Below, one piece after another: positions 1 through 60,789 of a stretch of DNA of 64,000 nt. A program made the position numbers and the translations under genes. The stretch's first letter is position 1, and the number at the start of each line of letters is the position of its first letter. Under the pieces are notes generated by a model that was given only the letters and a program-made list of their open reading frames with translations, was not told the DNA's origin and ran no database searches. Origin of the DNA: Syntrophales bacterium (GTDB lineage Bacteria > Desulfobacterota > Syntrophia > Syntrophales > UBA8958); the NCBI GenBank assembly GCA_026417625.1, contig JAOACW010000003.1, positions 76,699 to 140,698 on the forward strand, read 5' to 3'.

Positions 1-1402
1 TATTACAGATGTTGCAACGGTCATTTTCTGAGCCTACGCAGCCCCCTGCAGCTTGGAGTATGTACTTGCCTACCTGGACACCGCTTGCACCCAACATGAT
101 GAGTGCTGCGGCATTAGCAGCTAGGTTTCCTGTTTTTCCAACTCCACCGGCGGCGAAGAGAGGAATTTCATTTTGTTTGCCCACTTTAACGAGATTTAAG
201 TAGGCATCACGTATATTACTCGCTATGGGATGGCCCATGTGATCAAGAGAGACGTTATATGCCGCGCCTGTTCCGCCATCCTCGCCGTCGATGGCTAGGG
301 CGGCGGCGTATGGGTTTCTTGTGAGGTTGTTTAGCACTGCCAGAGCGGTGCTTGTTCCTGAAATTTTGGGATACACCGGCACCCTGAAACCCCAAGCCAT
401 GGCCATTGACTGGATCATTTTCGCTACAGATTCTTCTATGGAATACATCGTTTGATGTGTTGGTGGACTTGGCAAGCTAACGCCGCGAGGCACCCCCCTT
501 ATTGCGGCGATTAGTTTATTCACCTTGTACCACTCCAGTAACCCACCATCTCCGGGCTTCGCCCCCTGACCGTACTTTATCTCCACTGCACATGGGTCCT
601 CCACCATGTCCGGTAGTGCATGGATGATCTCGTCCCAACCGAAATATCCACTTGCAACCTGGAGGATGAGGTATTTCAAAAAGCGGGATTTCAGAAGTCT
701 TGGAGGACAACCTCCTTCTCCGGTACACATCCTTACGGGCATGCCCAGTTCTTCGTTCAGGTAAGCAACGCCCATCATAAGGCCCTCCCACATGTTTGGT
801 GAAAGTGCACCAAAGGACATGCTACCAATGATGAGAGGATAAATTTCCCGAACCGGTGGTATCCAACCGTCTTCGCTTTGAATCCTGATCATCTCTTCAG
901 GTGGAAGAATTCTCCCGAGAAGCGTGCGTAGCTCGAATTCGTGACGTCCCGCATCGAGAGCAGGGTCGGTTAACATGGAGATACGGATGAATTTTATTTT
1001 GTCGAGAGTACTGTCGGTCGCGTTTCTTCTACCCCCCCTTCTTCGCGGTGAACCACCCAGGTTGTTGTGAAAACGCCATTTATCAATTTCCTCACTATGA
1101 ACGGGGAAGATAGCGTTATTAGGACAGACCAGGTTGCACATGCCACATCCGTTACAGGCGCGATTTGGGTCGGTATGTTGATCTATGCCGTAGTAAATTC
1201 CGTAAACATTGGAGGGCCTCTGCAAGAGACCGATAGAGATATCTATGACCCTTTTTCTGTGCACGGCAAGTTCTATAGCCCTTACGGGGCAAACCGCTGT
1301 GCACCTGCCGCAGAGAGCACATATCTCTTTATTCCAGATGATTCTCCACGGGAGGTCTCTTGTCCCCAGTGTTGACGGGGCAACTTTTCCCACTGGCTCC
1401 AT
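1..1402 (-). CDS. Glutamate synthase FMN-binding subunit (GltB domain-2-like) with an N-terminal 2x[4Fe-4S] ferredoxin domain. The 3' end runs off the window.
   Basis: Absent from the ORF track because it has no stop in the window. My minus-strand translation from ATG 1402 (AGGAGG 11 nt upstream) reads MEPVGKV..NKEICALCGRCTAVCPVRAI..CNGCGMCNLVCPNNAI..IGSMSFGALSPNMWEGL..CTGEGGCPP..EIKYGQGAKPGDGGLL..IDGEDGGTGAA. The frame stays open to position 1. Confidence 0.85.
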   Translation of the reverse strand, partial: MEPVGKVAPSTLGTRDLPWRIIWNKEICALCGRCTAVCPVRAIELAVHRKRVIDISIGLLQRPSNVYGIYYGIDQHTDPNRACNGCGMCNLVCPNNAIFPVHSEEIDKWRFHNNLGGSPRRRGGRRNATDSTLDKIKFIRISMLTDPALDAGRHEFELRTLLGRILPPEEMIRIQSEDGWIPPVREIYPLIIGSMSFGALSPNMWEGLMMGVAYLNEELGMPVRMCTGEGGCPPRLLKSRFLKYLILQVASGYFGWDEIIHALPDMVEDPCAVEIKYGQGAKPGDGGLLEWYKVNKLIAAIRGVPRGVSLPSPPTHQTMYSIEESVAKMIQSMAMAWGFRVPVYPKISGTSTALAVLNNLTRNPYAAALAIDGEDGGTGAAYNVSLDHMGHPIASNIRDAYLNLVKVGKQNEIPLFAAGGVGKTGNLAANAAALIMLGASGVQVGKYILQAAGGCVGSENDRCNICN

Positions 1403-2496
1403 TTTTCGAGTTTCCTCCTGTCTTTTCTTACAATTGCCATGTCGTACTTGAGTGGTTGGAAGTCTTTCTCTTTATCACGGTGCGGTATTGCTGCTTCCAA
1501 TCCACACATTTCTGATGAAAAAACAAATATTCCCGGTATTCCTCCTGCTACACCCGGACGCAATTTCTTGCTATCCTGGACCATGAACAGTGTTTTATCG
1601 GGTGTGCAGCCTATGACACAGTTTGGACCATCGATAATGAGAGGGCGACATGCTATCTTTAGCATGCGCAGCCAATTACCATCTTCGTGCTGTCTCAGTT
1701 CCTCATCTGTTAGTGGTGTTATAATGTGCTTGAACATTTCCAAACTTAGCCCAAGATGCTTCATCGTGTAATGCAGAATGTGGGTAAACACCTCAGAATC
1801 TGAATAGTATCCGGTGTATCCTGGGAAATCCCGCGATTTCAGAAATTCTTTTATGGGTACGAAAGCTGTATTCTCTCCGTTCGTCATTGTAGAGAATCCC
1901 TGTATGAAGAAGGGATGACAGGCGTAAATGTTGATGGAATAATTTGTATTCTGACGACCTTGGGCTAAGATAATTCGAGCAGATAGTTCTTTACGATCCA
2001 AAGAGAGATATTCCGCGATGGTTAGGGGATCTCCAACCTCTTTGATCATGATCACATCCGGCCAAAAGCTGAAGACAAACATAGAACCATCATCTAATCC
2101 CCTCTTTTGAAGGTGAAGGCGGATTCTCAAAAGATGAAATTCTCTTTCTTCGCTCCCAAGTTCATTCCAATTTGGAGGGCAAGAGTAGACCCTTATCAGG
2201 TAAAGATCCCTTTTCGGTGTTCCAGGAGGTGGATCTCTTCTTGGGTATATAGAGATTTCATCCACCAAATTAAATTGATGTTCGTTCATGAAAGAATCGA
2301 GATATTTGACACCTTCCCTTGAGAAAGTTCCTGAGAGAATGGGATAATCTCTCAGCTTTTCGAAATCTCCGGACAGGTCCGTCATGAACAAACCCACACC
2401 TGACCCGTCGTGTCCCTCGCGCATAACGTCGAGTGCATTAAAGGCAAACATTGGCGAAAGAGGGTTTTCACTTGTGACTGCAAACAATCTGCACAT
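1282..2496 (-). CDS. Class-II (Ntn) glutamine amidotransferase, the glutamate synthase domain-1-like subunit of the archaeal-type split GOGAT
   Basis: 404-aa ORF starting MCRLFAV (Cys2 nucleophile) with a GltB amidotransferase-like body. The last ~40 aa overlap the next gene out of frame. Confidence 0.8.
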   Translation of the reverse strand: MCRLFAVTSENPLSPMFAFNALDVMREGHDGSGVGLFMTDLSGDFEKLRDYPILSGTFSREGVKYLDSFMNEHQFNLVDEISIYPRRDPPPGTPKRDLYLIRVYSCPPNWNELGSEEREFHLLRIRLHLQKRGLDDGSMFVFSFWPDVIMIKEVGDPLTIAEYLSLDRKELSARIILAQGRQNTNYSINIYACHPFFIQGFSTMTNGENTAFVPIKEFLKSRDFPGYTGYYSDSEVFTHILHYTMKHLGLSLEMFKHIITPLTDEELRQHEDGNWLRMLKIACRPLIIDGPNCVIGCTPDKTLFMVQDSKKLRPGVAGGIPGIFVFSSEMCGLEAAIPHRDKEKDFQPLKYDMAIVRKDRRKLEKWSQWEKLPRQHWGQETSRGESSGIKRYVLSAAGAQRFAP

Positions 2497-2534
2497 ACTG
2501 GATCCCTAAGCTATGTTCTCGTTGTTTTGTAATC

Positions 2535-2550
2535 TGCTAATGTTGTGCCA
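2535..2550 (-). promoter_or_regulatory. Sigma54 (-24/-12) promoter for the glutamate synthase genes
   Basis: The minus strand reads TGGCACAACATTAGCA, against the consensus TGGCAC-N5-TTGCA. GG and GC have the correct 10-nt spacing. It lies ~40 nt upstream of ATG 2496. Confidence 0.7.
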
Positions 2551-2793
2551 GGCTTTGCAGATTTATCATTGAAATGAATTTATTAACATTTTAGGCCTTT
2601 TTTGGAAGTTACATTTATGGGACTTCTAGTTAGACTGATGGAAAAATTACAAATTTGTATCTTAATTTTTTTCGTTTTCTTTTTTTACAGGTAAAACATG
2701 GGAATCTCTACTAATTTTAAGAAAGTAACATTTTTGTTTTCTTTCCTTTCGGGGTGTGCAAAAATGTTTCCAATTCTGGGAATAGTTTGGTGT

Positions 2794-4353
2794 TTATATA
2801 TTGCTTTGATTTCTGCGAGGTCGGAACTGCCACGGGTCAATACCCAGTTTTTGGATCTTGTAACGCAGTATTCTTTTGGTTGTTCCCAAGATTCTAGCGG
2901 CTTCTGATTGATTTCCATGCGTCTCTTTGAGGGCGTCTATGATAAGGTTGCGCTCTTGCTTTTCTATCACCTGTTTTAGCCGGCCTGAGATTTTCTTTTT
3001 TCCTTTTTGAGTATCTTTTGTGGTGTAAGACTGGAGTGATGGGGGCAGGTGAATGGTTTCTATGGACTCACCGTCCGCTAACAGTACGGCCCTCTCAATA
3101 CAATGCTCCAATTCTCGGACATTTCCCGGCCATGGGTAATTTAGAAGTGTCTCCAGAACCTCAGCTGAGATACGTTTTACAGGTCTATTGAACTCCTTTG
3201 CGTATTTTAGGACAAAATAGTCAGCGAGTAGTATTATGTCGCTGCCTCGTTCTCTTAAAGGCGGTAGATATATAGGAAATACATTGAGGCGATAGTATAG
3301 ATCAGACCTGAATTTTCCTGATTTTACATCGTTTTCGAGATCTCGGTTGGTCGCCGCTATTATTCTCACGTTCACTTTAACAATCCTTGTGGAACCCAGT
3401 GGTTGATACTCTTTTTCCTGTAGTACCCTCAATAGTTTAGCCTGGGCACTTGCCGAGAGTTCCCCCACCTCATCGAGGAAAATAGTTCCACCGTCTGCTT
3501 CCTCGAAACGGCCTTTTTTACGGGTTACAGCACCAGTGAAGGCCCCTTTTTCGTAACCGAAAAGTTCGCTTTCGATTAGGGTGTCGGGAATAGCCGCACA
3601 ATTGATGCTTACAAGGGGACCTGATTTTCTCGAGCTGTTTAGATGTATGGCTCTGGCTACCAGCTCTTTCCCCGTTCCTGTTTCCCCGTGTATGAGCACA
3701 TTTGTACTCGTGTTGGCAACTACGGAGATCTGGCCATAGATTTCTTTCATTGCTTTAGAATTACCGATTAATTCAGGTAAGAGAGATTGGGTTCGGCCTA
3801 TTATCAATCTCAAACGTCTATTCTCTTCTTCGATTGCCCGAGTGTGAACAGCCCTCGCTATTAGTTCGGCAACTGAGGACAACATGGCCAATTCTTGGTC
3901 GAGATTGGATACGTTCTGCGCGACCTTGTCGGCTGATATTACACCTACAACTCGATTGTCGTATTTTATGGGAACGCAGAGGAACGCAAGTTCGGATCTA
4001 TTGAGGGAACGTCTTGCTCCCGTGCGGTCTAAGAAAAGTGTTTCTTGTCCAAGGTTAGCAACAGCTATGGGACGTCCAGTTTGAGCGACCATTCCGGTGA
4101 TGCCTTCTCCCGGTCTGTATCTAACCTCCACATTTTCAATATCAACATCATGGGCTACGTCCAGCCAAGCTTCACCTGTTTCCCTATCCAATATGGAGAT
4201 CATTCCCCTGTTCATTCCTAGTCGGTTGCTCAACTCGTTCAATATTTCTTCCAGCTGGTCTTTTAGGTTCCCCGGTTGTGCCAAAATCCGAGCAATGGCA
4301 TGTAGAGCGGCAAGTTCTTCGTATGTGTGGATGCTCATAGTCTTGAAATGCAT
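2794..4353 (-). CDS. Sigma54-dependent transcriptional activator, NifA-like architecture (GAF - AAA+ - Fis-type HTH)
   Basis: 519-aa ORF. N-terminal GAF-like region, Walker A GETGTGKE, the GAFTGA motif ([15 protein letters not shown]), and a C-terminal HTH ([22 protein letters not shown]). Confidence 0.9.
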
Positions 4354-4485
4354 TGAAAAGCAAATTTTTTTAAAATTTTATTTGTTTTTGTACTGGTTGT
4401 CAAAACGTATCATATACTTGCGATGAGTCATGCACTTTGTAAAAGTGAATTAGTAATTTTTCATCGGCTTGCCTAATCAAAGGAC

Positions 4486-20232: not shown

Positions 20233-20261
20233 TTGACATGCATTTATATTTTTACTAAAAT
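20233..20261 (+). promoter_or_regulatory. Sigma70-type promoter of the aromatic operon
   Basis: TTGACA (20233-38), 17 nt, TAAAAT (20256-61), with an AT-rich upstream region. Confidence 0.7.
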
Positions 20262-20284
20262 GAAATAAATTTAAAGGATGCGCG

Positions 20285-20380
20285 ATGGATAGACCGCAAC
20301 TCATTTCAACACGCTATTTTTGGTTTGGTTATTTTTACGTGGGGAGGTCTGCCCATTGCGCCCCGAGGTTTTTAACGTAA
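20285..20380 (+). CDS. Leader peptide of the aro operon, rich in Tyr/Phe/Trp codons
   Basis: SD AAAGGA lies 6 nt upstream. MDRPQLISTRYFWFGYFYVGRSAHCAPRFLT has 7 aromatic codons in 8 positions (20315-20338). A terminator follows. Confidence 0.75.
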   Translation: MDRPQLISTRYFWFGYFYVGRSAHCAPRFLT

Positions 20381-20401
20381 GGTAAGCTAAAAGAAAAAAC
20401 C

Positions 20402-20445
20402 AAGGCCGTGGGCAGAGGAAAACTCCCCACGGCCTTTTAATTTTT
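20402..20445 (+). terminator. Attenuator (Rho-independent) terminator upstream of aroF
   Basis: Stem AAGGCCGTGGG (20402-12) / CCCACGGCCTT (20426-36), then TTTTAATTTTT. Upstream segments 20348-55 and 20339-46 are complementary to parts of it. Confidence 0.75.
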
Positions 20446-20491
20446 CTGGTCGTAGGGAGTGTAAGGGTCCCGGCAGGCGTGGAGGTGATCC

Positions 20492-21508
20492 ATGGTTATT
20501 GTAATGAAGAAAAACGCTACGGAACAACAGATTAACACAGTTATTGAGTGGATAGAGTCCGTTGGTTACAGGACCCATCTATCGAGGGGAGTGGAGAGAA
20601 CCATCATTGGTGCCATTGGGGATAGCAGAGGTCAGAATCATCTGACGTATCTCAGCATTATGCCCGGTGTGGAGAAGGTGATGCCAATTCTGAAACCATA
20701 TAAACTCGCCAGTCGGGAGTTCAAAGAAGAGGATACAATTGTAAGGGTGAGGGACATCCAAATCGGGGGCAACAGATTTACAGTGATCGCAGGTCCCTGC
20801 GCCGTCGAAAGTGAGGAACAGCTCATGGAATGTGCTTACGTAGCGAAGAAAGCGGGTGCTCATCTGTTGAGAGGAGGCGCATACAAACCACGAACTTCGC
20901 CTTATAGTTTTCAGGGTATGGAAAAGGAAGGATTGATCATTCTCAGGAAAGTGAGTGAATGCACTGGGTTACCTGTGGTTACAGAAGTGGTAAATACCAC
21001 TGATGTTGACCTGGTCGAGGAATATGCAGACATCATCCAGATAGGAGCAAGGAATGTACAGAACTTTGCCCTTCTAAAGAGAGTGGGAATGGCAAGAAAG
21101 CCTGTCCTTTTGAAAAGAGGTATGATGACTACTATCGAAGAGCTTTTGATGTCAGCAGAATACATTCTTTCCTCAGGGAATAGCCAGGTGATTCTCTGTG
21201 AGAGAGGCATCCGGACGTTCGAAACGGCTACCCGCAATACACTAGATATAAGTGCCGTTTTGGTACTTAAGGAATTGAGTCACTTACCCGTTATAGTGGA
21301 TCCCAGTCATGCATCCGGTAATTGGAGATACGTGATACCTTTAGCACGAGCTGCAGTGGCTGTGGGTGCCCACGGTGTTATCGTCGAAGTACACCCTGAA
21401 CCGGAGAAAGCAGTGTCTGATGGTATGCAATCTCTGAAACCGGAGAAATTTTATAGATTGATGGAAGAAGTCACTTTTCTGGCACGCACTATAGGGAAGG
21501 AGGTGTAG
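20492..21508 (+). CDS. aroF: 3-deoxy-7-phosphoheptulonate (DAHP) synthase, type I-beta, with an N-terminal ferredoxin-like regulatory domain
   Basis: 338 aa. A ~75-aa N-terminal extension, then a KDO8PS-like barrel ([32 protein letters not shown]). Confidence 0.9.
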
Positions 21509-28042: not shown

Positions 28043-28795
28043 ATGGGTTTGGGTTTTGATAATGCGACCATTGGAGTAGTAGGCGGCACCCGTGGCATGG
28101 GACGTTGGTTGGCTGATTTTTTTCGTGAAAGGGGTTTCTGTGTTTACGTCTCGGGTCGGAATACGCCCGCTGATTCTAGTACATTGGCCGAGTTGTGCCA
28201 AGTGATAATTGTTGCTGTGCCTATTTCAGTAACATGCGATGTGATAAGGGAATTAGGACCTCGTCTCCCCGATGACAGGTTGCTCGTAGATGTTGCCTCA
28301 CTGAAGAAGAGGTCGGTAGAGGCAATGCTGGAGAGTTCTACCTGTGAGGTAGTCGGTGTTCATCCTCTTTTTGGGCCAGCTGTTGAGTCAATAGCGGGAG
28401 AAAATGTGGTGGTATGTCCGGGAAGAGGCCAATCGGGTATGGAATGGATCTGCCGTACGTTTGTGGAAGCAGGAGCACGGGTGACAGTGACAACCCCAGA
28501 TCACCACGATCGAGTTATGGCTGTAATTCAGGCAATTAACCATCTGAATACAATGATTTTTGGTAAAGTTGTCAGGGAGTCGGGTTTGTCCGAGGAAGAA
28601 TTAGAGCGTTATTCTACTCCTTCTTTTCGTCAGAAATGGGAGCTCTTAAAGAGGATAGACGAACACCCCGAATTATATAGAGACATTATCACTCACAATG
28701 AGTACGTGGAGTCCATTGGGGCGCTTTATCTTGATGCAACTTTAGAACTGATGAACACACTCATAAAAGAGATTGACATAGCGGGCAAATTTTAG
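28043..28795 (+). CDS. tyrA: Prephenate dehydrogenase
   Basis: 250 aa; Rossmann GVVGGTRGMGRW, VGVHPLFGP, HD..MAVIQAINH. Confidence 0.85.
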   Translation: MGLGFDNATIGVVGGTRGMGRWLADFFRERGFCVYVSGRNTPADSSTLAELCQVIIVAVPISVTCDVIRELGPRLPDDRLLVDVASLKKRSVEAMLESSTCEVVGVHPLFGPAVESIAGENVVVCPGRGQSGMEWICRTFVEAGARVTVTTPDHHDRVMAVIQAINHLNTMIFGKVVRESGLSEEELERYSTPSFRQKWELLKRIDEHPELYRDIITHNEYVESIGALYLDATLELMNTLIKEIDIAGKF

Positions 28796-28801
28796 TATAT
28801 T
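28773..28801 (+). promoter_or_regulatory. Internal sigma70-type promoter for trpL-trpEGDCFBA
   Basis: TTGACA (28773-78, inside the last tyrA codons), 17 nt, TATATT (28796-801). The predicted TSS is only ~2-4 nt before the trpL ATG. Confidence 0.6.
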
Positions 28802-28810
28802 TAGAATAAT

Positions 28811-28870
28811 ATGAAATGTGTAGAATTAATACAAAGAGAATCAAGCTGGTGGTGGTGCTCCGAAAAATAG
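28811..28870 (+). CDS. trpL: trp operon leader peptide
   Basis: MKCVELIQRESSWWWCSEK, with three consecutive TGG codons (28847-55). Four-segment alternative hairpins follow. Confidence 0.8.
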   Translation: MKCVELIQRESSWWWCSEK

Positions 28871-28905
28871 GGGCACCCCACAGCTAAAAAGTTAAGAAAA
28901 TAAAT

Positions 28906-28948
28906 TGCCGTGGGGACCCCAAGGGGAGGTGCTCCGCGGCAGTTTTTT
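28906..28948 (+). terminator. trp attenuator terminator (segments 3:4)
   Basis: TGCCGTGGGG (28906-15) pairs with CTCCGCGGCA (28932-41) in a 10-bp stem that includes G-U pairs, followed by GTTTTTT. The antiterminator 28870-81/28910-20 excludes it. Confidence 0.75.
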
Positions 28949-28957
28949 ATGAATTTG

Positions 28958-28985
28958 AAAGGCCGTGCTTAGGAGCACGGCCTTT
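28958..28985 (+). terminator. Second, perfect 12-bp hairpin between the trp attenuator and trpE
   Basis: AAAGGCCGTGCT-TAGG-AGCACGGCCTTT, then AAATTT. The arms share AAGGCCGTG/CACGGCCTT with the aro attenuator terminator. Confidence 0.5.
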
Positions 28986-29012
28986 AAATTTGGAATTGAG
29001 TGAGGTTTATAG

Positions 29013-30527
29013 ATGATTGAACCATCATTTGCAGAATTTGTGGAACTCTCTAGGAGGGGCAATATCATACCTGTCTACAGGGAAGTATTGGCGGATACAG
29101 AAACTCCTGTCACTGTTCTTTTTAAGTTCTCACAAAATGATCCGGTGTTCCTTTTGGAAAGTGTTGAGGGTGGAGAGAAGTGGGGAAGATACTCTTTTTT
29201 GGGTTTCGATCCCCGGATGGTTGTTACGGTTGGTGATGAAGAGGTAAGGATCAGAGAGTACGGTGAAGAAAAGGTCCACAAGCATAACGGAGACCCGTTT
29301 GGCTTTCTGCGGAAATTTTTCAAAAAATTAAAAGTTGTGAGTGTTGGGGAACTCCCGCGATTTTGTGGTGGCGCAGTGGGTTACATTTCCTATGAGGCGA
29401 TTCGTTTTTTTGAAAGCAGGTTGAGTAAAATCAAAAGGGCAGGTGATGGATGGGATTACGCCGCCTTTATGATAACCGACACGCTTGTTGTGTTTGACCA
29501 TGTTAAACATACGTTGAAGGTTGTCGCACTGGCGTATGTGGATGGTGGTGATTTGAAGTCACTTTATGAAACGTGTGTGCAGAAGATTGATAAAGTAGTC
29601 CGCAGATTGAGAGATGAAGGGATCTCAGGTTTCTGTACCGTTCCGGTTGCTGAATACAAACCAGAGTTTAAGTCCAATATGGAACCAGAAGAATTTAAAT
29701 CGATGGTGGAAAGAGCAAAAATGAATCTAGTAAATGGCGATATAATTCAGGTGGTACTTGCTCAGAAGTTCACCGCTGTATGTGAGTTGTCGCCGGTGAA
29801 CCTGTATAGAGCCCTTCGTTTTATAAACCCTTCACCTTACCTATTTTTCCTCAGGTTCGGTGACAGATATATAATTGGTTCATCACCTGAGGTGCTCGTA
29901 CGTCTCGAGGGCTACAACGTAGAGCTCCGCCCCATAGCGGGGACCAGGCCAAGAGGAAAAACGGAGCAAGAAGATCGCAAATTGGCTGACGAACTTCTTA
30001 AGGATATGAAGGAGAAAGCTGAACATGTAATGCTCGTTGATCTGGCTCGAAATGATCTAGGGCGAATTGCCAGGTTGGGTAGTGTCCAGGTTACTTCTTT
30101 TATGAACGTGGAAAGGTACTCTCATGTCATGCACCTCGTATCAACTGTGGTGGCAGAACTTGATGATGGGAATGATGCCTTTGATGTTTTCAAATCTGTG
30201 TTTCCTGCGGGAACCCTGACAGGTGCTCCGAAGATAAGGGCAATGGAAATTATAGATGAACTGGAGCCTGTAGGTAGGGGTCCTTATGGTGGTGCGGTGG
30301 GTTACTTTTCATTCAACGGTGGGATGGATTTTGCCATCACCATTCGCACGATCCTTATGAGTGGTAATCAAATATGTGTGCAGGCAGGTGCGGGTATAGT
30401 TGCGGATTCCGATCCGGTTGGAGAGTTCGAGGAGACAATGAACAAGGCGGCGGGCATGATCACAGCGGTCCAGATGGCGGCCAGTGGTCTTGACTTAGTT
30501 ACTCTGCAGAGGGGGGATGTAAAGTGA
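29013..30527 (+). CDS. trpE: Anthranilate synthase component I
   Basis: 504 aa; LLESVEGGE, SPEVLVR, GTRPRG, LTGAPKIRAMEII, RGPYGGAVGY. Confidence 0.93.
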   Translation: MIEPSFAEFVELSRRGNIIPVYREVLADTETPVTVLFKFSQNDPVFLLESVEGGEKWGRYSFLGFDPRMVVTVGDEEVRIREYGEEKVHKHNGDPFGFLRKFFKKLKVVSVGELPRFCGGAVGYISYEAIRFFESRLSKIKRAGDGWDYAAFMITDTLVVFDHVKHTLKVVALAYVDGGDLKSLYETCVQKIDKVVRRLRDEGISGFCTVPVAEYKPEFKSNMEPEEFKSMVERAKMNLVNGDIIQVVLAQKFTAVCELSPVNLYRALRFINPSPYLFFLRFGDRYIIGSSPEVLVRLEGYNVELRPIAGTRPRGKTEQEDRKLADELLKDMKEKAEHVMLVDLARNDLGRIARLGSVQVTSFMNVERYSHVMHLVSTVVAELDDGNDAFDVFKSVFPAGTLTGAPKIRAMEIIDELEPVGRGPYGGAVGYFSFNGGMDFAITIRTILMSGNQICVQAGAGIVADSDPVGEFEETMNKAAGMITAVQMAASGLDLVTLQRGDVK

Positions 30528-34816: not shown

Positions 34817-35603
34817 TACTCGTTTCGCCACATTAAAGGGGAAAGGTGAAAAGGCTCTAATTGCTTATATAACTGCAGGTCACCCTGACTTAGAGATAAC
34901 TGAAGCCGTGATACCTGCGCTTGCTGATGCAGGAGTAGACGTTGTAGAAATTGGTGTTCCTTTTTCAGATCCAACAGCGGATGGACCCATTATCCAAGGG
35001 TCGTCTCAAAAGGCTCTTCGATCCGGAACGACTCTTCCGTCCATTTTGGAAATGATAAAGAGATTCAGAAATCGTGTTGCTATACCCCTAGTTTTGTTTA
35101 GTTACTACAATCCGATCTTTGTTTTTGGTGCGGAAAGATTTGCGAGAGTTGCAGCTGAAAGTGGAATTGACGGTATACTTGTCGTTGATTTGCCCCCTGA
35201 GGAGGCTTGTGAGCTCAGGTGTTATACGGACAAGGCTGGACTTGATTTTATACCTCTGGTTGCGCCGACAACGAGCAGTAAAAGGATGAGACTCATTGTA
35301 AAAGAGGGATCAGGTTTCATTTATTACATAACTCTAACCGGGGTAACGGGTACGGGCCGACCTTTTGTGGAAGAGGTTAAGGAAAGAGTCCTTGAGATTA
35401 AGTCATTTTCCCCTCTCCCTGTGGTAGTTGGATTTGGTATCTCAACTCCTGAGCAGGCTGCGGAAATTGCGTCTTTTGCCGATGGTGTTGTCGTTGGCAG
35501 TGCATTTGTCAAGCTGATGGATAGTGTTTCGAGAGAAGATTTGGTGGAAAAGGTTTGTAAATTCGCATCCTCAATTAAACTCGCAATGGATAACTCTAGA
35601 TGA
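34803..35603 (+). CDS. trpA: Tryptophan synthase alpha chain
   Basis: 266 aa; [33 protein letters not shown]. Confidence 0.92.
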
Positions 35604-36466: not shown

Positions 36467-38373
36467 TTACTTTACCTCTTCAAAATCAGCGTCAACCACA
36501 TCATCGTCTTTCTTTCCCCCCGCGTAAGTGTCGGTCTTACTGGTTCCTGCACCTGACTGTTGAGCAGTTGTCCGTGCGTACATAGCTTCTGCCAGACGAT
36601 GGGATGCGGTGGTGAGTTCTTCCTGAGCTGCTTTTATAGCGTGGATATCATTCCCTGCCATAGCCTTTTTGACCTTTTCAATTGCCGCTTCTATGCGTGC
36701 TTTCTCTGAGGCATCTATTTTATCGCCGAATTCTCTTATGTTTTTCTCCACACTGTACACAAGGGCATCTGCCTGATTGCGAGCCTCAACCAATTCTTTC
36801 TTTCGTCTATCTTCTTCTGCGTGCATCTCTGCCTCTTTGATTAATCTCTGGATTTCCTCTTCAGTTAAACCGCTGGAAGCTGTGATCCTTATGCTTTGCT
36901 CCTTTCCAGTCCCTAGATCCTTGGCTGATACGTGGACTATACCGTTGGCATCAATATCAAATGTCACCTCTATCTGCGGTATACCCCTGGGGGCCGGTGG
37001 TATACCGATGAGTTCAAAGCGTCCCAGAGATCGGTTGTCGGCTGCCATGGGACGTTCACCTTGGAGGACGTGAATGGTGACGGCAGTCTGATTGTCCGCA
37101 GCGGTGGTGAATATCTGACTCTTCCTTGTGGGTATGGTGGTATTTTTTTCTATGAGTTTTGTAAAGACACCACCAAGTGTTTCAATACCTAGGGATAGGG
37201 GGGTCACGTCCAGAAGGAGTACATCTTTGACGTCTCCCGCCAAGATTCCGCCCTGGATCGCCGCACCGATTGCAACGACCTCGTCAGGGTTCACCCCTTT
37301 ATGGGGTTCCTTCCCAAATATCTCTTTAACCTTTTGCTGAACGCGGGGCATCCTTGTCATGCCTCCCACAAGGATCACTTCGTCAATATCCTTGGGAGTG
37401 AGACCTGCATCTTTGAGTGCCGTGCGGCATGGAGGTTCCAGTTTCTCTATTAAATCCTCCACAAGGGCCTCCAGCTTTGCCCGTGTCAGTTTCATATTCA
37501 GATGCTTTGGACCAGATGCATCTGCGGTTATGAAAGGAAGGTTAATCTCCGTTTCCAACGCTGTTGATAATTCTATCTTTGCTTTTTCTGCGGCCTCTTT
37601 CAGACCTGCAAGGCCATACGATCGTTGCGTAAATCTATCCCGTAGTCCTTCTTAAACTCATTTGCAAGGTAATCGATGATTCTTTGGTCGAAGTCTTCTC
37701 CACCCAAGTGGGTATCACCATTTGTTGCTTTTACCTCGAAAACACCATCTCCGAGTTCCAGTATGGATATGTCAAATGTTCCGCCACCGAGATCGAATAC
37801 TGCTATCTTTTCGTCTTTCTTTTTATCAAGGCCGTATGCTAGTGCTGCGGCGGTAGGTTCGTTTATGATTCTTACCACATTAAGACCCGCGATACGTCCT
37901 GCATCTTTTGTTGCTTGTCTCTGGGCATCGTCAAAATAGGCGGGTACTGTAATTACTGCATCTATTACCTTTTGACCGAGATAATCTTCTGCTGTCTGTT
38001 TCATTTTAGTAAGTATCATTGAAGATATTTCAGCTGGGCTGTAATTTCTTCCCTTTACCATTACATGAGCGTCACCGTTTGGTGCTTCAACGATTTTGTA
38101 GGGCAGAATTTTTTTGTCGTATTGCACTTCCTTTGAGTTATACTTTCTTCCGATAAGCCTTTTAACGGCGAAGATGGTATTTTCAGGGTTAGTTATGGCT
38201 TGTCTCTTGGCAGCTTGTCCTACAAGGCGCTCACCGCTGTCGGTGAAGGCCACCATGGACGGTGTTGTTCTGCTTCCCTCCTGATTTGGTATAACAACAG
38301 GGTCTCCCCCTTCCATTATCGCTACACAGGAGTTCGTGGTGCCCAGGTCTATTCCTATTATCTTTTTACCCAT
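36467..38373 (-). pseudogene. dnaK: Chaperone DnaK (Hsp70) interrupted by a single-nucleotide deletion. This is either a frameshift or a sequencing error.
   Basis: The N-terminal ORF ([22 protein letters not shown]) stops at 37600. The next frame continues [28 protein letters not shown].. to 36467. One base is missing from the Arg codon of the conserved ALQRLKEAAE motif at ~37603-05. The true start is ATG 38373 (AAGGAGG 9 nt upstream). Confidence 0.9.
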
Positions 38374-38396
38374 TGTTTTCATCCTCCTTGAGTTTT

Positions 38397-59007: not shown

Positions 59008-59100
59008 AATTACTTCTCCTAGAGAGAGATGAATAATGATAGGGAATCTTGCTCGAGTTTTCTATAATGAAGAGAGAAAAATGTAAATCTTTTTTTTGAA

Positions 59101-59134
59101 AATAAAAACCCCCAGATTTCTCCTGGGGGTTTTT
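59101..59134 (-). terminator. Rho-independent (bidirectional-looking) terminator after groEL
   Basis: A5-CCCCCAG-atttctc-CTGGGGG-T5. Confidence 0.75.
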
Positions 59135-59154
59135 ATTTTGGGTTTTAGTTACTT

Positions 59155-60789
<1,635 letters not shown>

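Follow-up and report, generated by a model that had tools for sequence, protein, structure and literature searches.

A conserved tryptophan leader with two terminators between tyrA and trpE of a Syntrophales aro-trp supraoperon, a candidate double-lock attenuator

In Escherichia coli, the trp leader trpL begins with a 26-nt 5' untranslated region (UTR) that carries a Shine-Dalgarno (SD) sequence. The his attenuator of Salmonella and E. coli has six segments, which pair either as A:B, C:D and E:F or as B:C and D:E, and its C:D hairpin is not a terminator. In Bacillus subtilis the trp genes are part of an aromatic supraoperon, aroFBH-trpEDCFBA-hisC-tyrA-aroE, which has an internal trp promoter and attenuator and uses TRAP, a protein that binds (G/U)AG repeats, as the sensor. 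To our knowledge, nearly all leader-peptide attenuators characterized so far come from Proteobacteria, Actinobacteria or a small number of further groups, and we know of no genetics in the Syntrophales, a syntrophic lineage rich in uncultivated members. Here we describe a leader element that sits between tyrA and trpE on the + strand of a 64-kb stretch of a Syntrophales metagenome-assembled genome (MAG; contig JAOACW010000003.1), the whole of which we call the window. The best overall explanation of this element, and one we consider likely to be correct, is a ribosome-mediated (leader-peptide) Trp transcription attenuator between aroF...tyrA and trpEGDCFBA.

Two described systems bring a Trp leader peptide to the 5' end of its message. 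The trpL/rnTrpL of Sinorhizobium meliloti encodes a leaderless Trp leader peptide whose transcription start has been mapped (PMC6614838), and mapping in Deinococcus deserti revealed 14 leaderless attenuator leader peptides, including that of trpEGD with a transcription start site at -1 (PMC4007540). The Syntrophales leader would resemble these in having its Trp open reading frame (ORF), without an SD, at or 1-3 nt from the transcript 5' end, but the start was mapped in those organisms and is only predicted here, and among the Syntrophales-type leaders the trait is limited to the sub-lineage of the window. A leaderless leader peptide, known elsewhere, is plausible at this locus. In the literature we found nothing relevant on trp attenuators of Syntrophales or deltaproteobacteria, nor on attenuators with tandem terminators, and comparative-genomics surveys by Vitreschak in 2004 and by Lopatovskaya and Lyubetsky in 2010 may list deltaproteobacterial candidates. 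No trp attenuator seems to have been described before in the Syntrophales. What would be new is a conserved and apparently coupled second terminator, and with it a putative two-terminator relay.

All genes of the supraoperon lie on the + strand in the order aroF-aroB-pheA-aroD-aroE-aroA-aroK-aroC-tyrA, leader, trpEGDCFBA, with aroF at 20492, trpE at 29013 and trpA at 35603. The prephenate dehydrogenase gene tyrA (28043-28795) ends with a TAG at 28793-95. The ATG at 28811, 15 nt past this stop, opens a trpL-like ORF of 19 codons on the + strand (28811-28870) that encodes MKCVELIQRESSWWWCSEK, with three Trp codons at 28847-28855 and a TAG stop at 28868-70. This ORF with its Trp-Trp-Trp (WWW) run lies 142 nt before trpE, which matches TIGR00564 at 531 bits and whose SD (GTGAGG) and ATG start codon (29013) occupy 29000..29015 (+). 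From the tyrA stop to the leader, the sequence shows no terminator. The leader ORF and the two terminators that follow it, T1 and T2, are unannotated.

The Trp codons lie in the 5' arm of a hairpin in which segment 1 (28844..28861) pairs with segment 2 (28870..28885). Segment 2 can instead pair, as an antiterminator, with segment 3 (28906..28920), the core strands of this 2:3 helix being GGGGCACCCCAC at 28870-81 and GTGGGGACCCC at 28910-20. Segment 3 is also the 5' arm of T1, in which TGCCGTGGGG (28906-15) pairs with CTCCGCGGCA (28932-41) over 10 bp, including two G-U pairs, and segment 4 (GGUGCUCCGCGGCA, 28928..28941) is its 3' arm; a G and T6 follow at 28942-48, the U6 tract itself occupying 28943..28948. 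An initial annotation made from the sequence letters had described this short ORF (sORF) with its three TGG codons and the pairings of segments 2, 3 and 4, and all of them lie where it placed them. It had also paired segment 1 with segment 2, which we confirm, and had called this pairing imperfect; the hairpin is not weak, comprising 16 bp with two 1-nt bulges. Its inventory of hairpins, 1:2 and T1, was right as far as it went and missed the third, T2 (28958-28991). Folding, which it had proposed as a check, gave a minimum free energy of -83.3 kcal/mol for 28805-29012, whereas dinucleotide shuffles gave -49.2 +/- 4.0 (z = -8.5; 0/200 as good), and the fold holds the three hairpins 1:2, T1 and T2.

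Relatives were gathered via TrpE. An exact look-up of the window TrpE gave no match, and a search of a large protein collection found it at 100% identity in a Syntrophales MAG, together with at least ~120 Syntrophales TrpE homologues. In all, 13 more loci proved to share the leader architecture, giving an alignment of 14 leaders (A1). L001-L003 come from species-representative genomes, L081 and L082 from metagenomes, and L161, L163-L166 and L169-L171 from a large protein collection and then the encoding contigs; L162 and L167 were left out as duplicates of L161 and L164, respectively, as was the degenerate L168. TrpE scans of the genome and metagenome contigs yielded no relative above 60% identity, and the closer ones came via the protein search only. 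The TrpE of L161 is 81% identical to that of the window, and those of the other loci are 54-63% identical to it. The leader accompanies trpE whatever lies upstream, including at loci without aro genes upstream. The upstream gene is tyrA in L161, L163 and L166, tyrA with an MGMT-type gene in L164, divergently transcribed genes in L165 and L169, and unrelated genes in L170 and L171. A comparison upstream of trpE, also proposed in the initial annotation, thus extends the sORF to 13 further loci, with WWW or WWWW at the same position in 14/14 leaders and the remaining peptide poorly conserved.

When applied to A1, RNAalifold returned exactly 1:2, T1 and T2. In this terminated state 94.6% of the alignment cells hold standard pairs, compared with 42-58% when the partners are slid by 1-3 columns, and 13 pairs are changed on both sides; 0/500 shuffles matched this. 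Folding and covariation in the alignment both support segments 1 and 3, and the T1 helix is 99.3% paired over the 14 sequences, with double changes in six pairs and an invariant U-tract. To mimic a stalled ribosome, the Trp codons and ~13 nt were masked and the RNA was folded to the end of segment 3. The 2:3 antiterminator then formed in 14/14 sequences, with energies between -16.6 and -31.9 kcal/mol (-21.0 in the window). In the alignment columns this helix is 87% paired and has five compensatory pairs, among them columns 45-91 (CG 5 / UA 5) and 42-93 (UA 6 / CG 4). The read-through state, composed of 2:3 and a 4:5 helix described below, is 86.6% paired, compared with at most 56% when slid. 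The spacing agrees with the classical model: a ribosome with a Trp codon in its A site covers segment 1 to ~28860 and leaves segment 2 free, and one at the UAG at 28868-70 covers 28870-81, the segment 2 core. In most relatives the leader ORF runs on to stop at the 3' end of segment 2, with the same consequence as in the window.

The leader shows the E. coli trpL-type features that were tested for, namely a tandem-Trp ORF, an intrinsic terminator and mutually exclusive 1:2 and 2:3 pairings. Like trpL (RF00513), it has a short tandem-Trp ORF in segment 1, the pairings 1:2, 2:3 and 3:4, a 3:4 terminator with a U-tract before trpE, and a stop codon placed for a non-stalled ribosome to mask segment 2. 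It differs in having three Trp codons rather than two and in lacking sequence or covariance-model similarity to the E. coli leader. No Rfam family matched the 64-kb window at gathering thresholds, and in 28600-29100 neither Trp_leader RF00513 nor a T-box was found at E<=10, the only matches being noise from microRNA and small nuclear RNA models. A TRAP-type series of (G/U)AG repeats is likewise absent from 28796-29012, where the longest chain is one triplet. As in the B. subtilis supraoperon, the trp genes are nested after aro genes, and an internal promoter with a Trp attenuator would check both transcript sources; unlike in B. subtilis, there are no (G/U)AG repeats in the leader and the sensor would be the translating ribosome. 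The attenuator reading of the initial annotation is strengthened by the conservation of the sORF and of 1:2, 2:3 and 3:4 before trpE in 13 loci, with compensatory changes in both folds. Judged from these sequence features, it is highly probable that the leader acts by classical ribosome-mediated Trp attenuation.

The leader also appears to have a promoter of its own. A -35 hexamer, TTGACA (28773..28778, +), lies within the last tyrA codons, and after a 17-nt spacer a -10 hexamer, TATATT (28796..28801, +), directly follows the tyrA stop TAG, an 11/12 match to the consensus that the initial annotation had located correctly. Sites with at least 11/12 matches to TTGACA-16..18-TATAAT number six in the 64-kb window, against 1.25 +/- 1.2 in first-order Markov simulations, an enrichment of about fivefold, and the only two on the + strand of the aro-trp region are at 28773 and at 20233, before a leader that precedes aroF. 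TTGAC(A/G) with a -10-like hexamer 16-18 nt downstream occurs before all 14 leaders (at least 5/6 matches in nine, 3-4/6 in five), and the motif is kept whatever the upstream gene, be it tyrA, an MGMT-type gene or divergent genes. Since the upstream gene is divergent at some loci, a promoter would be obligatory there. There is a good probability that the internal promoter drives the leader. An alternative -10, TAGAAT (28802-07), was rejected, as it has no -35 at 16-18 nt upstream. The four remaining 11/12 sigma-70 sites in the window, each with a perfect TTGACA, lie at 4403 (-), 39673 (-), 47821 (+) and 51644 (+) and are likely to be real promoters of neighboring operons.

Promoter geometry places the predicted transcription start at 28807..28809 (+), 6-8 nt past the -10, with a 5' UTR of 2-4 nt; initiation 7-8 nt after the -10 would give a UTR of 2-3 nt (5'-AAUAUG or AUAUG). 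No SD-like motif is present in the 21 nt before ATG 28811, compared with an SD at 16/18 checked supraoperon starts. The -10 ends 9 nt before the leader ATG in the window (tagaataat), in L161 (aattttggt) and in an independent trpS-trpE leader, L026 (tatagagtt), and all three are without an SD. The other 12 loci have longer gaps, of 10-50 nt if measured to the first candidate start and of ~22-50 nt to the likeliest one. Most of them show an SD-like motif, and within the 14-member family the near-leaderless geometry is confined to the window and its nearest relative, L161. The initial annotation had correctly noted the missing SD. That the SD is absent just where the gap is short gives the best indirect support for the near-leaderless start that it had proposed, the start itself being predicted. 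We consider a leader 5' UTR of no more than 5 nt somewhat probable on this evidence. Compared with E. coli trpL, the window leader has no SD, and its -10 ends 9 nt before the ATG.

T2 begins 10 nt past the T1 U6 tract. The hairpin (28958..28982, +) consists of an A-tract (28958-60), the 5' arm GGCCGUGCU (28961-69, segment 5), a UAGG loop and the 3' arm AGCACGGCC (28974-82, segment 6), and is followed by an interrupted U-tract, UUUAAAUUU (28983..28991, +), which in relatives is mostly U5-U7. It is present in 14/14 leaders, with an invariant basal GGCCG/CGGCC and an upper stem that covaries (column 159-167: AU 7 / CG 5). The stem pattern GGCCGYG-N(3-12)-CRCGGCC has T2 as its only match in the window; the aroF-leader terminator has a similar stem base and a longer loop. 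The 3' arm of T1 (C-R-CGGC) and its U-tract are complementary to the A-tract and 5' arm of T2 (GCCG-Y-G), and this alternative 4:5 or anti-T2 helix, in which segment 4 pairs with segment 5 and the T2 loop and the U6 tract pairs with the A-tract before T2, is predicted in 14/14 sequences.

Anti-T2 and T2 are about equally stable, at -14.6 to -24.6 and -16.2 to -24.6 kcal/mol, respectively, over the 14 sequences. For the window they come to -19.6 and -21.3 kcal/mol, and anti-T2 reaches -23.3 kcal/mol as long as the polymerase has not yet released the base of segment 6. Permuting the order and orientation of the T2 stem pairs left T2 stability unchanged, whereas anti-T2 became weaker, on average by 4-8 kcal/mol; the observed anti-T2 energy fell in the lowest 0-8.5% of the permutation null in each of the 14 sequences. 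Nucleotides with a place in both of two alternative helices, which form the cores of segments 2-5, are invariant and the upper stems that serve a single helix covary, a pattern that we read as the signature expected of a relay like that of the his leader. The UGGUGG of the Trp codons is echoed along the leader, segments 1, 3 and 5 being GGUGG/GCCGUG-like and segments 2, 4 and 6 CCRCC/CRCGGC-like. Together, sequence and modeled energies suggest that one stalled ribosome may open both terminators via a five-helix relay.

Under this model, a sigma-70-type promoter overlapping the end of tyrA would start transcription an estimated 2-4 nt before ATG 28811, so that ribosomes would translate the 19-codon leader from a message with little or no 5' leader of its own. 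If charged tRNA-Trp runs short, the ribosome would stall on the three UGG codons and cover segment 1, allowing segment 2 to pair with segment 3 and block T1 (3:4). Pairing of 2:3 would at the same time free segment 4 for the 4:5 helix, which would pre-empt T2. When Trp is plentiful, the ribosome would reach the UAG at 28868-70 and cover segment 2, so that T1 could form and transcription would stop at U6 (~28948); with segment 4 locked in T1, T2 would catch polymerases that escape T1. The predicted relay would alternate between 1:2 / 3:4 / 5:6 and 2:3 / 4:5, one stall gating two terminators. With no terminator after tyrA to stop them, transcripts that start at the aroF promoter are expected to enter the leader as well, where they would reach the SD-less internal ATG 28811 and fold by default to the terminated state. 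Re-initiation at this ATG after the tyrA stop is possible, and without it the RNA would default to 1:2, T1 and T2, in which case the attenuator would also terminate the aro unit.

Like the his attenuator, the leader would form three consecutive hairpins when terminated and two interleaved ones when read through, a stall being relayed via the middle hairpin. It differs in that the middle hairpin, 3:4, is itself a terminator with a conserved U-tract, U6 in the window, so that there would be two termination sites, and in that the codons are for Trp and not His. Differences from E. coli trpL are the conserved T2, linked by the 4:5 helix, and the position within an aro-trp supraoperon instead of behind a TrpR-controlled promoter.

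Several other explanations have to be weighed against this reading. The region could consist simply of tandem terminators of the aro operon, with the WWW ORF untranslated or without regulatory function and with trp control, if there is any, exerted by a protein or by a tRNA-sensing RNA. The lack of any Rfam family match fits this explanation, but WWW(W) is kept in 14 loci while the other peptide residues diverge, the Trp codons lie inside segment 1, 2:3 covaries, the element stays with trpE where aro genes are absent upstream, and neither a T-box match nor a (G/U)AG series longer than one triplet is present; we regard it as hardly credible. It is improbable, if less extremely so, that there is no internal promoter, the TTGACA-17-TATATT being fortuitous and the leader being carried only on the aroF...tyrA message, its peptide made by re-initiation or 70S scanning. 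Such an arrangement would suit the short distance from the tyrA stop to the leader start and the missing terminator between them, and promoter-like sites in 19-37 kb are not above shuffles (24 vs 29.3). It does not sit well with the excess of 11/12 sites (6 vs 1.25), of which the only other one on the + strand of the aro-trp region precedes the aroF leader, with the TTGAC(A/G) and -10 before every leader, including those at divergent-gene loci, or with the coincidence of SD loss and a 9-nt gap in the window, L161 and L026.

The strongest competitor concerns T2. The leader may be an ordinary four-segment attenuator that works through T1 only, with T2 unregulated and serving as a fail-safe, for expression tuning or as the end of the aro operon, and with the complementarity a by-product of a duplicated GC-rich stem. 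This is quite possible, although we think it doubtful. The 4:5 helix is essentially without compensatory change, T2 is the equilibrium structure in 10/14 sequences, L168 keeps T2 despite having lost the WWW ORF and the T1 U-tract, and a GGCCGUGGG...CCCACGGCC terminator ends the aroF leader too, so the stem type may be common in the lineage. Conversely, an efficient constitutive terminator before trpE, with U5-U7 in most relatives, would cap expression during starvation; anti-T2 and T2 are nearly iso-energetic in 14/14 sequences; anti-T2 is much stronger with the T2 pairs in their real order than in permutations of equal stability; and it is exactly the 4:5 nucleotides that are invariant while the rest of T2 covaries. 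A number of observations also weigh directly against a double-lock attenuator with a near-leaderless message. Covariation in 4:5 is nearly nil, only columns 114-157 being variable (AU 6, GU 6, GC 2; never A-C), and this single pair, though free of A-C clashes, is not significant, and was set aside as proof of the helix. The equilibrium advantage of T2 means that the relay needs a kinetic argument, with 4:5 forming first during transcription. The 4:5 complementarity follows automatically from the GCCGYG/CRCGGC stem base common to T1 and T2, which could be a relic of duplication. The U-tract of T2 is interrupted in the window, so T2 may be weak there. The 9-nt gap is present in three loci only, a message with a UTR of 2-3 nt does not begin with a true 5'-AUG, and the 14 sequences are related, so that counts of 14/14 are not independent. 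Balancing these points, we would put a functional T1-T2 relay at an even chance from its sequence and modeled energies. The complete proposal, a double-lock attenuator in which the T1 U-tract is also a strand of the T2 anti-terminator, shared by Syntrophales and an Armatimonadota trpS-trpE locus and near-leaderless in one sub-lineage, is put forward tentatively, at slightly short of even probability.

The limits of the family were explored with a covariance model built from the alignment, which gave full-length matches in four groups only. The 14 loci scored 106-147 bits, L168 scored 63 bits, L026 scored 39.9 bits (E about 5e-7), and the aroF leader of the window was at noise level. The L168 element, at 2781-2940 and again flanked by tyrA and trpE, lacks a WWW ORF, one frame reading W-E-W at most. 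Of its T1 U-tract a decayed CUCUUAAUUU remains, with T2 intact and followed by U5; the element may represent a lineage that has lost ribosome sensing and has kept the second terminator. L026, from an Armatimonadota MAG, has its leader at 1009-1262, followed by trpS (1284-2270) and trpE (2283-3794); the leader encodes the peptide MKTASYLFIHGGNYKWGWRYSN (...KWGW...), and downstream of it lie both T1 and T2, with a 4:5 helix of -18.3 kcal/mol. The design may have reached this genome by horizontal transfer or may be of older origin. A weak match in L012 was discarded as an ordinary terminator after the upstream gene, and L016, L023 and L008 had scores similar to that of L012. Also discarded were a match at 59041-59193 of the window, an unrelated terminator, and minus-strand matches, which are palindromic hairpins read backwards.

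Other, unrelated-looking Trp leaders were seen before trpE in other phyla, at 5820-5965 in L013, 2320-2470 in L094 and 2330-2480 in L106, and further unrelated-looking Trp leader peptides lie upstream of trpE in L047, L049, L058, L114 and L138. Their peptides include MNL(M/S)SR.VCAGWWRWH... in uncultured delta/Binatia-like genomes and ...GWWWF... in L106, and gammaproteobacterial ones have ...SWRWW before the stop codon or ...RWWRWR.... A single terminator is present in each of L013, L094 and L106, and T2, as far as leaders were inspected, is confined to the Syntrophales-type family.

A second attenuator-like leader lies before aroF, at 20233-20448 (+) of the window, where the promoter TTGACA-17-TAAAAT (20233-20261) is followed by an SD-led sORF (20285-20380) encoding MDRPQLISTRYFWFGYFYVGRSAHCAPRFLT, with the aromatic-rich run YFWFGYFY, and by the aforementioned terminator, GGCCGUGGG...CCCACGGCC with a U-tract, at ~20404-20448. 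The strand CGUGGGGAG, which directly follows the aromatic codons, has its complement in the 3' arm of that terminator, and the fold has z = -3.8. With this attenuator-like leader, the supraoperon seems to have an aromatic-general checkpoint and then a Trp-specific one. Elsewhere in the window, the TTG start listed for aroA (25177) is without an SD and overlaps aroE by 19 nt, and the true start is probably further downstream. On the - strand, dnaK is split into two ORFs (36467-37558 and 37600-38382) with the junction at ~37560-37600, where the protein reading passes from one frame into the next. This points to a 1-nt frameshift, which may come from misassembly of the MAG or mark a pseudogene.

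The analysis documents for the Syntrophales a well-conserved attenuator family that has no matching Rfam model, and the alignment and covariance model could seed an RNA family. Within it, the 12 relatives with longer UTRs, most of them with SD-like motifs, and the two loci with predicted UTRs of 2-3 nt offer a setting in which to compare ribosome loading and transcription-translation coupling. If the two-terminator design is real, it would be a compact part for synthetic biology. For the bacteria themselves, a double lock, if true, would lower basal read-through at no cost to induction, giving low leakiness and a large dynamic range.

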